A stretch of DNA of 64,000 nucleotides, taken from positions 64,001 to 128,000 of the forward strand of contig CAWIXE010000002.1 of the NCBI GenBank assembly GCA_963840035.1, given 5' to 3'. Positions 40,999-56,226 of the stretch are shown piece after piece. How positions within the stretch are numbered: position 1 is the first letter of the stretch; the number at the start of each line of letters is the position of its first letter. The notes under the pieces are model-generated. The model was not told the origin of the DNA. It did not search any database and worked only from the letters and a program-made list of their open reading frames with translations. This stretch comes from a candidate division FCPU426 bacterium. GTDB taxonomy: Bacteria; Oederibacteriota; PGYV01; Palsa-1178. The translations under genes were made by a program, and so were the position numbers.

Positions 40999-41431
40999 AG
41001 CCGCCGCTTGCATATGCCATGAGCTCTATAATATGCTCATGACATATACATATCGAATGGCTGCGGCTCAAGGCCGGTTTTGTTTTCGTAGTCGCAGGCC
41101 TACGCTCCACCGGCCTGCGCCTAGATTAGGAATTGAATTACGCAAACGGTAGATATTCAAGACTACCGCGTACGCACCCCGATGGAGCGTAGAGGGTGCG
41201 ACTACACAAACGATAAAGCGAAGGCTGCAACGTTTGAGCCGCAGCAAGCAGCGGCTCTACAAGAACGGTAAAGGATTCGTTTTCGTAGTCGCAGGCCTAT
41301 GCCCCACCGGCCTGCGTCTGGATGAGGAATTGAACACGCAAACGATAGAGCCAGGTCCTGCCCTGAGACGGGCACGGGTCCCGTCTCTGCGGGTTTGATT
41401 TTCTGTAGAGACGCCAACTGTGGGCGTCTCT
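40995..41431. repeat. Dense nested cluster of at least 7 GTAG-type REP palindromes of four types
   Basis: C+ 40995-41070, A+ 41088-41119, B- 41173-41205, C- 41235-41260, A+ 41285-41316, D- ~41365-41390, D+ 41405-41431. Confidence 0.85.
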
Positions 41432-49733: not shown

Positions 49734-49967
49734 ATGGCGGATACAGGCAAGACAGACAGGGAAATGCAGGAGGACCTTTTAAAGTTCGCCCAGACAAAGT
49801 ACCTGGACGCGCAGCAGAAGTATAACGCCATACAGGCGCTGGCGAAAAAGTATAATATGCCGCTGGAGCAGATGATAAAAAAAATTATAATGGAGTGGAT
49901 GATTGAAGACAAAACGCAGAAGTTCACAAACGCAGGAAAAAAAGCCCCTTTCAAAAAGATACTCTGA
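49734..49967 (+). CDS. Small hypothetical helical protein between pyrG and kdsA
   Basis: ATG directly after the pyrG stop; host-like codon usage; overlaps the kdsA 5' end. Confidence 0.5.
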   Translation: MADTGKTDREMQEDLLKFAQTKYLDAQQKYNAIQALAKKYNMPLEQMIKKIIMEWMIEDKTQKFTNAGKKAPFKKIL

Positions 49968-50757
49968 GATAACCGGAAGCGGCCTTTTCCTCATAGCCGG
50001 CCCGTGCGTTATTGAGAGCGAAAAGATGGCGTACGGCATAGCCGAAGCCCTCGGCGAGATCACCTCAAACCTGGGCATTCCCTTCATTTTCAAAGCATCC
50101 TATGACAAGGCAAACCGCACTTCCATAAAAAGCTTCAGGGGAGTGGGTATTGATAAGGGCTTAAAGATATTATCAGGCATAAGGAAAGCATACGGCATTC
50201 CGGTACTGACGGATGTCCACAGCCCCGAAGAAGTTAAAAAAGCCGCGCAGAATGTCGATGTGCTCCAGATACCGGCGTTTCTTTGCAGGCAGACTGACCT
50301 GATAGTCGCCGCGGCGAAGTCAGGCGCGATAGTGAACATTAAAAAAGGGCAGTTCCTCTCGCCCCAGGAAATGGGAAACATAATTAAAAAAGCAGAAGGC
50401 GCCGGAAATAAAAACCTCATGCTAACCGAAAGAGGATTTACTTTCGGCTACAATAATCTCGTTGTAGACCTAAAATCAATAGCCCACATGAAAACCCTAG
50501 GATACCCCGTTATCATAGACGCCACGCACGCGGTTCAAAGACCCGGCGGAGCCGGAGACAAAAGCGCCGGCGAAAGGCAGTACGTCGAAGCCATAGCCAA
50601 AGGCTGCGTAGCAGCCGGAGCAAACGGAGTCTTCATGGAAGTCCACCCCAACCCGGAAAAAGCCCTCTCAGACAGGGACACGCAGTACAGCCTGGATAAA
50701 ATCGAGGAACTGCTCGGAACGCTGTTGGATGTGTATAAGGCGGTAAATAAGGTTTGA
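49903..50757 (+). CDS. kdsA: Kdo-8-phosphate synthase
   Basis: IAGPCVIES, KASYDKANRTS, QIPAFLCRQT, KKGQF, DATH. Confidence 0.95.
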   Translation: MKTKRRSSQTQEKKPLSKRYSEITGSGLFLIAGPCVIESEKMAYGIAEALGEITSNLGIPFIFKASYDKANRTSIKSFRGVGIDKGLKILSGIRKAYGIPVLTDVHSPEEVKKAAQNVDVLQIPAFLCRQTDLIVAAAKSGAIVNIKKGQFLSPQEMGNIIKKAEGAGNKNLMLTERGFTFGYNNLVVDLKSIAHMKTLGYPVIIDATHAVQRPGGAGDKSAGERQYVEAIAKGCVAAGANGVFMEVHPNPEKALSDRDTQYSLDKIEELLGTLLDVYKAVNKV

Positions 50758-50763
50758 TTTTTT

Positions 50764-50872
50764 GTAGTCGCAGGCCTACGATCCACCGGCCTGCGCCTAG
50801 ATTAGGTATTGAAGCACGCCAACGGTAGACGCCAATATTCGCACCCCGATGAGACGTAGAGTGTGCGACTAC
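50764..50872. repeat. REPIN 1 (REP-A, conserved spacer, inverted REP-B)
   Basis: gtagtcgcaggcc...ggcctgcg-cctag...attgaagcacgcc...cgcaccc...gtgcgactac. Confidence 0.9.
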
Positions 50873-50910
50873 GGGAACAATATCAAACAACTAGCGCACG
50901 CCAAGATTTA

Positions 50911-51527
50911 GTAGTCGCAGGCCTACGATCCATCGGCCTGCGCCTAGCCAAGGAATTGAAGCACGCCAACGGTAGATAACAACGCGCAGAATGGAATATG
51001 TTTATAGGGGACAAAAAAATGAAAACTACAAATACTTGTCCGGATTGTGGGGCTGAGATGTATTCGGACACTGTCTGCAAAAAGTGTAATTCCCGTATTA
51101 AAAATCATGAAGGTAGCGACGCTTTTAATTTTGAAGATATGGAAAAAAATATTGAAAAGCTTGCGGCTGAAAAACGTAATAATGAAAACATTGCCGTTTC
51201 GGGATCTTTTATAAATGAAAAAGAAGTAGATGCGCGTGTTGTATTGTTAAAGGCGTTATCAACGTCATTTGGAGTTTTTATTATTTTTTCTGTGGTTGTT
51301 ACAATGTTGTTTTTATATTTTGCTAATTTAAGGCCTGGAATCAAGGATTACTTTATGCGCGATCAGTTAGCTATTGGCGGTAGCTTTGTTGTTTCGCTGA
51401 TAGATTATTCAGTGATAGCGATTGCGACCTGGAGCGTAGCAGCTATTAGCAGACAAGCATATATAAGGACTGACTGGAAGCAAGAGCCAACGCACGCACC
51501 CCGATGAGGCATAGAGGGTGCGGCTAC
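50911..51527. mobile_element. REPIN 2, expanded, enclosing a cargo gene
   Basis: REP-A plus conserved spacer at 50911-~50978; REP-B at 51495-51527; ~510-bp AT-rich insert between them. Confidence 0.7.
51019..51507 (+). CDS. Zinc-ribbon plus 2-TM hypothetical protein (AT-rich cargo)
   Basis: AGGGG RBS; CPDC...CKKC; two hydrophobic helices; stop codon lies within REP-B. Confidence 0.7.
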   Translation: MKTTNTCPDCGAEMYSDTVCKKCNSRIKNHEGSDAFNFEDMEKNIEKLAAEKRNNENIAVSGSFINEKEVDARVVLLKALSTSFGVFIIFSVVVTMLFLYFANLRPGIKDYFMRDQLAIGGSFVVSLIDYSVIAIATWSVAAISRQAYIRTDWKQEPTHAPR

Positions 51528-51574
51528 GAAAGTACAAGGAATGAAATACAACGCAAAACAAATAGAGGTGTTTT

Positions 51575-52063
51575 GTGGAAAAGAAACACAGGCTTGATGA
51601 ATCTGTTTATATAGGCAAACTGCGCGCAACTTTTACGGTTTGCGTTGAAGACAGGCAGCCGCTGTTTAAAGATAAGGCCGTCGTAAACGTCATGCTGCAA
51701 ATCCTGAAACAAATCTTTGAAAAATATCATTTGCTTAACTGGATTTATACTTTCATGCCGGACCATCTGCATCTGATATTTGAAGGCGTCAAAGATAATT
51801 CAAACCTGCTGAAGGCTATGCATATGTTTAAACAGAAAGCTGGCTATTGGTTGAAGATAAATAAGCCCGGATTTAAACTCCAAAAAGATTTTTATGACCG
51901 CGTTCACCGGCAGGATGTAGTACTGGTTTTACAGATGCTTTATATCGCGGAAAACCCAGTAAGGTCCGGTTTGGTGAAAGAGTGGCAGGAATTTGAAAAT
52001 ACAGGGTCGTTAAGTTTTGATTTAAACGTTGAGATGCAGTCAGCGGATGTTTTAAAGCCGTGA
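51575..52063 (+). CDS. REP-associated tyrosine transposase (RAYT, IS200-like Y1 HUH)
   Basis: MPDHLH (HUH), FKQ, Q.DFYD...R, YIAENPVRSGLV; flanked by GTAG REPs. Confidence 0.9.
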   Translation: MEKKHRLDESVYIGKLRATFTVCVEDRQPLFKDKAVVNVMLQILKQIFEKYHLLNWIYTFMPDHLHLIFEGVKDNSNLLKAMHMFKQKAGYWLKINKPGFKLQKDFYDRVHRQDVVLVLQMLYIAENPVRSGLVKEWQEFENTGSLSFDLNVEMQSADVLKP

Positions 52064-52068
52064 TTTTC

Positions 52069-52184
52069 GTAGTCGCAGGCCTACGATCCACCGGCCTGCG
52101 CCTAGATAAGGAATTGAAGCACGCCACCGATAGAACATAAAATCCAACTGGCGCACCCCGATGAGGCGTAGAGGGTGCGACTAC
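52069..52184. repeat. REPIN 3 (REP-A, spacer, inverted REP-B)
   Basis: Near-identical to 50764-50872 and 41088-41205. Confidence 0.9.
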
Positions 52185-52193
52185 ACAGGAAAA

Positions 52194-52251
52194 ATGAATA
52201 AAAAGACATAAAAACCCTTATAAATAAGGGTTTTTATGTCTTTTTATTCAT
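52194..52251. repeat. Perfect 28-bp inverted repeat (AT-rich, 2-nt spacer)
   Basis: atgaataaaaagacataaaaacccttat-aa-ataagggtttttatgtctttttattcat. Confidence 0.9.
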
Positions 52252-52336: not shown

Positions 52337-52760
52337 ATGACTGAAACTGATAAATATACGGCTTTTATCGATGGCGCTTCTAGCGGGAATCCCGGGCATG
52401 CCGGCATTGGCGTGGTTATATATAAGGGAAAGGACCAGATACTTATGGAGTCCAAGTATATCGGCGAGGCCACAAATAACGTGGCTGAGTACTCGGCGCT
52501 TTTACACCTTCTGGATATCGCCACCAAGCATAAGATCAAGCACCTTGATATTTTCTCCGACAGCGAACTTCTGGTAAAGAGGCTTCTCCGGCGAGTATAA
52601 GGTCAGGGACGAGAAACTTCAGGAGTTTGTAAAGAACGCCATCGCCCACAGGAAGACCATCAAGTATACGGTCACCCATATCCCCAGGGAAAAGAACAAG
52701 GAAGCTGACAAGCTCTCCAAAGAAGGATCCAAAAGGGGAGGCAACATCAGAAATGTATGA
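52337..52760 (+). pseudogene. rnhA: Ribonuclease HI-family protein, apparent frameshift at ~52582 (possible assembly error)
   Basis: DGASSGNPG, TNNVAEY, SDSELLVK, then +1 frame SGEYKVRD...HIPREKNKEADKLS. Confidence 0.85.
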
Positions 52761-55218: not shown

Positions 55219-55329
55219 GACGCCGGGTTTTGAATGTAACACAAGCTGTCACCCTGGCCGTCTAAAGATTGACAGCATATATATGGTGTGATAATGTTAA
55301 TAAAGTTGTTAAAAAATACGGAGGAAAAT

Positions 55330-56196
55330 ATGAAAAAACTGATGATGTCGGCGCTGCTTTTAACGGCAATATGCGCGTTTGCCTGCTGCGCCGGAACTTC
55401 AGAGACGCTTTCCTCCGCCGTTAAACCTGATCAGGCGCCTGCCGCGGTTTCAGATGCTGTTAAGCCCGCGCAAACACCTGCCGTTGTTTCGGCAGCTGTA
55501 AAGCCGGCTCAAACGCAGGTTGTTGTTTCAACCGGAATTAAGCCGTCACTTACGCCGGACGCGGCTGATGATTCCTATCTGTATTATCCCGCCCATGTGG
55601 GCAATATCCTGTATCTTAAGGCGCGGAAAAAGGCCGAACCGGATAAGGAAGTATTTGTTAAGGCTGAAATCATAAAGATTGAAAAAAAGGACGACGGCGA
55701 TTATTTCTATTTTTACGGACCCCAGGTAAATGTGCGCTATTTGATCGGTATTGATAAAGACGGGGTATCAATGAGGGTGATAAAGTACCCGTTCCCGTTT
55801 TTTGATATTTCCATCGAAGTGGATATAAAGCCGAAGATGCCCATAATAAAGTTCCCGCTTAAAGCCGGGGCAAAGTGGCACTATGAAGGCCAGGGCGAGG
55901 CCCACCTTTTATTCATACCCATCACCAGGAACTTAAAGGCTGATTTTGAAATAGTCGAGAGGGTCACAAGGAAAACAGAGGCAGGCGACATAGACTGCTA
56001 CCACCTGAAAGTACTGCTTGACTCGGGCGACGGTAAGGGCGTAACCACCGAGGAGTACTGGTACGCGAAAGGCATAGGCTACGCCATAGCGGATACAAGC
56101 GGGCATGTGGCGTCGATAGTCGGATATAAGATTTTTGACGATACAACCGGCAAATGGAATGAGAAGATACCTGCAAACGTGGAATTATACAAGTAG
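55330..56196 (+). CDS. Exported hypothetical protein with 13-aa (S.AVKPAQ.PA.V) repeats and a beta-rich C-terminal domain
   Basis: Signal peptide; 3-4 repeats; TEAG...CY...WYAKGIG. Confidence 0.7.
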   Translation: MKKLMMSALLLTAICAFACCAGTSETLSSAVKPDQAPAAVSDAVKPAQTPAVVSAAVKPAQTQVVVSTGIKPSLTPDAADDSYLYYPAHVGNILYLKARKKAEPDKEVFVKAEIIKIEKKDDGDYFYFYGPQVNVRYLIGIDKDGVSMRVIKYPFPFFDISIEVDIKPKMPIIKFPLKAGAKWHYEGQGEAHLLFIPITRNLKADFEIVERVTRKTEAGDIDCYHLKVLLDSGDGKGVTTEEYWYAKGIGYAIADTSGHVASIVGYKIFDDTTGKWNEKIPANVELYK

Positions 56197-56226
56197 TCGC
56201 ACCCTCTACGTTTTATCGGGGTGCGT
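56193..56226. repeat. Solo REP-B whose GTAG supplies the stop codon of the upstream gene
   Basis: gtagtcgcaccctctacgttttatcggggtgcg. Confidence 0.8.

Follow-up and report, generated by a model that had tools for sequence, protein, structure and literature searches.

A REPtron at a kdsA-rnhA junction with an orphan gene between the two halves of a REPIN-like unit

The kdsA-rnhA gap, its RAYT gene and the enclosed ORF

The analyzed window, i.e. the whole stretch of 64,000 nucleotides, holds a RAYT gene (51575..52063, plus strand, 162 aa) amid three co-oriented units, in the gap between a kdsA-like gene (49903..50757, plus strand) and an rnhA (RNase H) ORF (52337..52600, plus strand), the left and right anchors of a conserved junction. 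In each unit a tagged hairpin, REP-A, is followed after a spacer by a second hairpin, REP-B, which differs from the first and is inverted. Hairpin matching reproduced the three-unit layout and the RAYT position of the original prediction, and all coordinates proved correct on rechecking. Unit 1 (50764..50872, plus strand), which begins 6 nt after the kdsA stop, is an intact REPIN with REP-A at 50764-50795, a 44-nt spacer and inverted REP-B at 50840-50872. Unit 3 (52069..52184, plus strand) is intact as well (REP-A 52069-52100, 51-nt spacer, inverted REP-B 52152-52184); its lowest-energy fold consists of separate hairpins and its centroid fold pairs the ends (z about -2.8). Unit 2 is split. Its left half (50911..50989, plus strand) comprises REP-A (50911-50942) and the spacer up to the expected start of REP-B, i.e. 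positions 1-68 of the unit model, and the REP-B hairpin is absent directly after it. Its right half (51456..51527, plus strand) covers model positions 35-119, with a decayed spacer (about 51456-51494) followed by REP-B (51495-51527, read on the minus strand), and the REP-A hairpin is absent directly before it. The gap from REP-A to REP-B thus reaches 552 nt in unit 2, versus 44 nt in unit 1 and 51 nt in unit 3; with its 617 nt and an enclosed ORF, unit 2 is not short and non-coding, whereas units 1 and 3 are.

These hairpins are not due to chance: the genome contains 43 matches to REP-A and 38 to REP-B at two mismatches or fewer, whereas a first-order Markov control of 1.7 Mb (contig-sized) gave two matches, both at four mismatches. 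The pair of inverted REPs with a short spacer is itself repeated as a unit, since 37 full units were found among 62 assigned matches in the genome. The whole genome (G000) carries about 700 tagged hairpins under 35 labels, with REP families that nest within each other, and 8 matches to Y1_Tnp. One of its Y1 transposases (C2:582560-584910, 327 aa) has a weak match to a DnaA-type helix-turn-helix; upstream of it, about 190 nt of other DNA is likewise bracketed by copies of both end regions of this transposase and precedes a 173-aa gene with a GC content of 0.27.

The RAYT product scores 33.1 bits on the Pfam Y1 transposase (IS200-like) domain (PF01797, Y1_Tnp; cut-off 23), and its gene is flanked by tagged REP hairpins (six at the locus) of a family dispersed between genes, as befits a TnpA_REP-like Y1 HUH nuclease. 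On the NCBIfam model NF047646 it reaches 65.6 bits, below the curated cut-off of 80, and the IS200 model gives only 19.3; judged by the NF047646 shortfall, its sequence appears to represent a divergent subfamily. When its profile was compared to solved structures, E. coli TnpA_REP (4er8) was the only match (E 2.9e-9). The H64-x-H66 motif and Y123 are invariant in 7 aligned sequences and also align with 4er8; we take these three residues to be the catalytic ones. The RAYT is single copy, the other matches in its own genome being 25-36% identical.

The ORF enclosed in unit 2, hereafter the cargo, lies at 51019..51507 on the plus strand (162 aa, or 169 aa with a start at 50998) and its stop (51505-51507) falls inside REP-B, as had been noted. 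The insert is indeed AT-rich: its GC content is 0.367 and that of the cargo ORF 0.38, compared to 0.405 for the RAYT gene, 0.498 for kdsA and about 0.47 for the genome. The earlier description as a Zn-ribbon protein with two transmembrane segments holds in part. Two CxxC pairs near the N-terminus are zinc-ribbon-like, but the Pfam zinc-ribbon matches are all below threshold, and of the hydrophobic stretches one is strong and the second weaker. The product is predicted to be a small membrane protein whose zinc ribbon lies in the cytoplasm. The cargo retrieved only itself from a large protein set (among 56 candidates) and from 1.84 billion representatives, and no homologue better than E 0.006 appeared in 40 relatives. 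Its Atlas recognition value (2476) is within the range of real proteins, and its look-alikes there, an unnamed cluster (0.91) and zinc-ribbon clusters (0.82-0.87), serve as leads only. A promoter scan gave 3 sites for 4.1 expected; the gene is probably transcribed on the kdsA operon transcript.

Several features of this region stand apart from the split unit. A perfect 28-bp inverted repeat (52194-52251) is located between unit 3 and the region upstream of rnhA. The rnhA gene (52337-52760) encodes 87 aa here versus about 140 aa in relatives, which points to a frameshift or an assembly error, and a related contig of run X1 has one different base in rnhA, near 52584. The contigs of one DNA run (share 0.08) leave 50726-51484 uncovered, and the single joint among them is an intact REPIN from elsewhere; neither an empty nor a circular form of the locus appeared in any read or contig.

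Edges of the cargo and other REP-flanked genes in the genome

An alignment of 13 units displays a conserved tail after REP-A, a slot variable in length and sequence, and a short tail before REP-B. The CAACGC repeat initially reported at both edges of the insert is present (50980..50985, plus strand, and 51488-51493, the latter within the decayed spacer), but it is probably part of a longer spacer duplication of about 40 nt. The 38 nt preceding the right copy resemble REP tails with a best score of 34 and a mean of 15.3, above all 866 control gene ends (99th percentiles 24-25 for the best and 13-14 for the mean). Thus the foreign part would extend from about 50990 to 51455, and the duplicated part would be most of the spacer rather than 6 nt. 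About 40 nt of decayed spacer accordingly precede REP-B, and the last 17 codons or so of the cargo consist of spacer-like and REP-B DNA. We therefore rejected a 6-nt target duplication as the main signature. Deletion of 50980-51487 leaves 37 + 7 = 44 nt, exactly the spacer length of unit 1; given the spacer-like DNA before REP-B, this sum may be partly a coincidence. The right and left spacers of unit 2 have some motifs in common (23/35 columns), and the right one scores 12-18 against the three local units versus 22-34 against some distant units. Five solo right halves and one weak match start at model position 76-78. A fixed cut site deduced from these starts was rejected, because the variable slot lies just before this point and any break there looks alike.

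The genome search for REP-A...REP-B pairs suggested by the original prediction returned a second split unit, at C2:130991-131700. It consists of REP-A and spacer, a 139-aa orphan with a GC content of 0.30, then spacer and REP-B. A 26-nt spacer variant is found at both edges with a single mismatch, the next-best genomic copies having six, and the whole is nested within an outer REP pair. In the relative G006 an intact unit of the same orientation precedes the corresponding downstream gene, the upstream gene being different. In G002 and G003 the site is occupied by low-GC genes with no detected REPs, so it is variable anyway.

When the contents of the 46 occupied gaps were shuffled, clustering being taken into account, the two split pairs observed compared to a null mean of 0.2 (P 0.012); with the window locus left out, i.e. 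for C2:130991 alone, P rises to about 0.13. The two split pairs enclose the two lowest-GC genes among the 8 flanked on both sides by the REP family of the window. More generally, a GC content of 0.37 or less is found for 6/65 genes with REPs on both sides versus 54/2221 without REP (P 0.006), and for 3/8 genes in inward-facing REP pairs versus 3/57 (P 0.02). These two GC tests are post hoc and small, with a threshold of our own choosing; they include C2:130991, found beforehand, and rely on hairpins listed de novo, a list from which some REP-B copies are missing, among them the REP-B of the window itself. There is no REP at 54 of the 76 low-GC genes.

Other genes lie between REPs in this genome. 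Between dnaE and pilB, inward-facing REPs of another family surround a 143-aa orphan, a gene present only in G000 among 99 genomes, and dnaE and pilB are adjacent in the three inspected relatives with an orthologue (G002, G008 and G011). The dnaE-like gene there (C2:798342-801768) reads as two overlapping ORFs, possibly by a frameshift or an assembly error. At C2:254598-255110 a TfoX-like gene (C2:254684) is situated between inward-facing REPs, with a REP-A-type spacer tail on its left and a weak spacer-end match on its right. The left flank scores 28 bits (null maximum 18) and the right one 15.9 bits, between the 95th and the 99th percentile of 251 controls; this third candidate split is suggestive and was not counted. 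No REP was detected beside the TfoX-like homologues in the DNA seen of G003 and G005. Of six genes tested for paralogues, four have none and the other two only neighbouring ones, 27-29% identical. At C2:183270-185261 three paralogous genes (27-29% identical) alternate with REPs of different families. The same cargo bounded by REP ends at more than one place was not found.

Solo halves are frequent, with 14 left and 11 right ones among the 62 assigned matches, and several lie between conserved operon genes in G002 and G006. No split pair was detected in 28 regions of these two genomes, drawn from at most 150 scored candidates per genome. Units also resemble their neighbours: similarity is 0.81-1.0 for 9 near pairs and averages 0.74 for 519 far pairs, so that local copying happens without capture. 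At C1:211070-218588 four co-oriented long-spacer units occupy successive gaps around genes of ordinary GC content; two of them, identical over 77 nt, enclose a HEPN and nucleotidyltransferase gene pair.

The junction and related RAYT loci in other genomes

The junction was compared in 15 of 24 relatives with kdsA. All 15 belong to other genera, so none of them represents a true empty allele. Neither the cargo nor the window's RAYT is present between kdsA and rnhA in any of the 15. The situation named at the outset as contrary to capture, a cargo that is a stable syntenic neighbour, is thus not the one encountered. In 13 of the 15 the two genes are separated by 6-341 nt, one of these gaps containing a single REP of another family. 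The other two, G006 and G002, are of the same genus and have distances of 1085 and 1752 nt, each with another RAYT, 30-32% identical to that of the window. In G006 this RAYT sits between short REP pairs and only a short REP pair is found upstream. In G002 a REP, a 196-aa gene with a GC content of 0.32 and a decayed REP pair lie upstream of the RAYT.

A pattern scan of metagenomes gave four loci, of which one (L068) was informative, L069-L071 being left out of the count. On this contig a RAYT of the window's family (62.5% identity) precedes rnhA, so that the same family stands at the same junction. Upstream, in a view of 58 nt only, REP-B and about 8 nt of spacer are preceded by 50 nt of non-spacer DNA that resembles the end of another ORF. 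These comparisons indicate that the gene is not resident, that the junction is a reused REP site and that RAYT families swap there. The slot upstream of the RAYT does hold different DNA in different genomes. Such swapping appears to be at odds with the idea of RAYT genes as fixed to a single locus.

RAYT genes appear mobile elsewhere too. G002 has a second copy of its RAYT at another locus, 97.8% identical and without cargo, where a 204-nt stretch (the RAYT 3' end and the REP pair) is repeated upstream at 84%. Four gaps of G002 and G006 (L255, L177, L247 and L159) whose counterparts in G000 hold other RAYT genes contain nothing but REP units or halves; the set of RAYT loci thus varies from genus to genus.

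Relatives of the window's RAYT at 38-53% identity occur in many uncultured lineages. We inspected 23 of the 80 loci returned, partly overlapping a set of six loci; most are a bare RAYT between short REPs. Extra genes are found inside the REP-marked stretch in 2 of the 23: in L072 an ORF of 455 aa separates the RAYT from its upstream REP, and in L076 the REPs stand after several neighbouring genes. None of the 23 showed a small low-GC gene enclosed by a split pair. In viral contigs one distant RAYT has REPs and lacks a small cargo.

Two relatives show genes bracketed by repeats that include REPs. In G002 (L173:2580-3666) a low-GC helix-turn-helix gene stands between direct repeats of 144 nt (94%) that consist of a REP pair with non-REP flanks; further small low-GC genes and REPs follow. 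In G006 (L240:2379-3522) a 198-aa gene, unmatched in G000 and without a Pfam family, has a copy of REP-A with tail and nested REP on either side.

Possible origins of the split unit

The feature is real, and its comparative support is better than that of a single locus and short of proof. The reading we put first, tentatively and at somewhat less than an even chance, is that of a lineage-specific REPtron in the kdsA-rnhA gap into which the orphan was joined by RAYT nicking and strand transfer, in a one-off capture. The cutting, the joining and the order of events would be as follows. RAYT would bind a tagged hairpin on single-stranded DNA and nick at a two-base site lying at a variable distance from it; the 5'-phosphotyrosine end would then be joined to other DNA at a 3'-OH end. 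DNA copied from the nick onward would place some of the spacer on either side: about 40 nt in the window, decayed since, and an almost exact 26 nt at C2:130991. It is likely that the captured piece was severed ahead of its own stop codon, so that the frame runs through the spacer into REP-B. In E. coli, TnpA_REP cleaves single strands at a two-base site as far as 400 nt or more away from the REP (PMC3333891) and transfers strands (PMC3333891; PMC8266576). The idea that REP ends act as gene-capture or cassette boundaries has fared unevenly. A non-resident cargo, a variable slot and a second split make capture at a REPIN plausible, but no cargo occurs twice between REP ends, the homologues of two comparable genes are not REP-bounded in the DNA seen and halves occur alone.

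Part of the evidence does not sit easily with a one-off capture. Solo halves are common, also between conserved operon genes in G002 and G006, and split pairs were not seen in 28 regions of these genomes. The right spacer of unit 2 is closer to some distant units than to the local ones, which fits two separate REPINs. The pairing test loses its significance without the window locus, most low-GC genes are devoid of REPs, the C2:130991 site varies in relatives anyway, and neither of the two related RAYT loci with extra genes has a small low-GC gene in a split pair.

The gene could instead have come by an unrelated route, with REPINs or halves hopping to both sides of it and their inner hairpins being lost later; the REPs would then mark a tolerant intergenic site and would have captured nothing. 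The frequency of solo halves between resident genes, the greater likeness of neighbouring units, the series at C1:211-218 kb that fills gaps around ordinary-GC genes, the distant affinities of the right spacer and the many low-GC genes without REPs all agree with this. But it requires the inner hairpins to be lost twice in the same way, and the C2:130991 halves have a spacer variant found nowhere else, nested in an outer REP pair. It also leaves aside that the split pairs hold the lowest-GC genes. We consider such independent landings possible, though rather unlikely.

The cargo and the RAYT could also have moved together as one unit with the outer REP-A and unit 3 as its ends; the RAYT would have brought its former upstream neighbour into a REPIN between kdsA and rnhA, and the inner REPIN, no longer an end, would then have decayed. 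An extra gene stands directly upstream of the RAYT in both the window and G002, with a decayed inner unit in both, and the outer REP-A copies are alike (0.84-0.87 in the window; 95% over 42 nt in G002). RAYT genes do appear to move, judging from the two near-identical G002 copies and the terminal duplication of one of them, and two RAYT families occur at the same junction. This origin appears improbable since it leaves the split unit without RAYT at C2:130991 unexplained, the second G002 copy has no cargo and no donor locus is known.

An integron-like system, with REPIN spacers as recombination sites, REP-bounded cassettes in circulation and the RAYT as the integrase beside the newest cassette, is very unlikely. 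In its favour, the slot before the RAYT is filled by different genes, leaders and trailers are tight, the units that lie between genes are co-oriented, and REP-containing direct repeats of 144-150 nt surround a gene in G006 and in G002. But no cargo occurs twice (4 of the 6 tested genes have no paralogue), the TfoX-like gene and the G002 cargo have homologues without REPs (for the latter in the DNA seen of G005, where the homologue ends at a contig edge, and of G008), duplication lengths vary by case, the cargo has no stop of its own and there are no long arrays. Integron cassettes hold small orphan genes that have short flanks and no promoter; they lie beside a recombinase and are bounded by structured repeats that are processed in single-stranded form. 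The window resembles them in its small orphan gene, promoterless and closely flanked, beside a recombination enzyme and bounded by structured repeats. It differs by its enzyme, an HUH nuclease, by boundaries that vary and by the absence of any cassette found twice; none of 6 matches in the genome to the integron integrase model TIGR02249 passed the cut-off (best 89.7 of 265 bits), and no attC site was recognised by eye in the sequence of the locus. A wider proposal is doubtful, according to which RAYT nucleases and REPIN spacers form an integron-like capture platform in this bacterial family: foreign genes would be joined into REPINs, RAYT genes would move and swap as units bounded by REPs, and the most recently captured gene would occupy the slot next to the RAYT.

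One-off capture by the RAYT, to return to the reading put first, has a precedent. Ton-Hoang et al. (2012, PMC3333891) proposed that a REP/BIME unit can sequester flanking genes or fragments; the examples named for it (codA-cynR, tnpA_REP pieces) copy parts of the adjacent sequence. Sequestration by REP units is thus already published and, relative to that proposal, the foreign orphans and the swapping of RAYTs at one site are the new parts. Our literature search, outside of which most subscription journals fell, found no report of whole foreign orphan genes in split REPINs, nor of one RAYT family taking the place of another at a single junction. Like the window, the E. coli REPtron (4er8) has a Y1 HUH nuclease gene bordered by tagged hairpin pairs that are also dispersed in the genome. 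That REPtron is described with one fixed locus and local partial copies, in contrast to the orphans without source in the genome and the RAYT families exchanged at one junction found here.

In Pseudomonas, a REPIN consists of two inverted REPs around a spacer whose length falls into one of several classes (Bertels and Rainey 2011, PMC3116915, PMC3337134), and REP singlets were suggested to arise by DNA insertion into REPINs (PMC3116915). These REPINs are described as non-coding and the RAYTs as non-jumping and single-copy (PMC3116915; 10.1101/2021.07.10.451892). By comparison, the two REPs of a unit have different stems in the window's genome, two units hold genes, and G002 has two near-identical RAYT copies. 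REPs are also targets of insertion sequences (Tobes and Pareja 2006, PMC1525189), a case of DNA inserted into REP elements, as here. Unlike insertion sequences, both split-unit inserts lack a transposase (no Pfam family above cut-off), and no terminal inverted repeat was found on the window insert. A TnpA_REP-type gene lies beside prochlorosin genes (Laurenceau et al., 10.1101/2020.03.09.984088), a physical link to accessory genes that recalls the window; this subclass has no REPs, its partner is one gene family and the authors leave causality unresolved.

According to 10.1101/2021.07.10.451892, it has yet to be explained why hosts retain RAYT genes and REPINs. If REPIN spacers do take up foreign genes, the RAYT-REPIN system would take a direct part in gene acquisition and its repeats would be occasional entry points for such genes; the 2012 proposal (PMC3333891) would then extend from local fragments to whole foreign ORFs. 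The window's bacterial family offers defined substrates for tests, namely one unit that is intact, two that are split, and a junction with two RAYT families.

Units of the same kind adopt further arrangements in this genome. At C1:663117-664403 nine REP-A/REP-B units are in tandem with a period of about 146 nt. Within the window, a solo REP-B half (56193-56225) has its tag overlapping the stop of a 302-aa ORF (55288-56196), and at 41088-41350 a full unit is followed by a solo REP-A half, the matching gap of G002 containing a unit in the opposite orientation.
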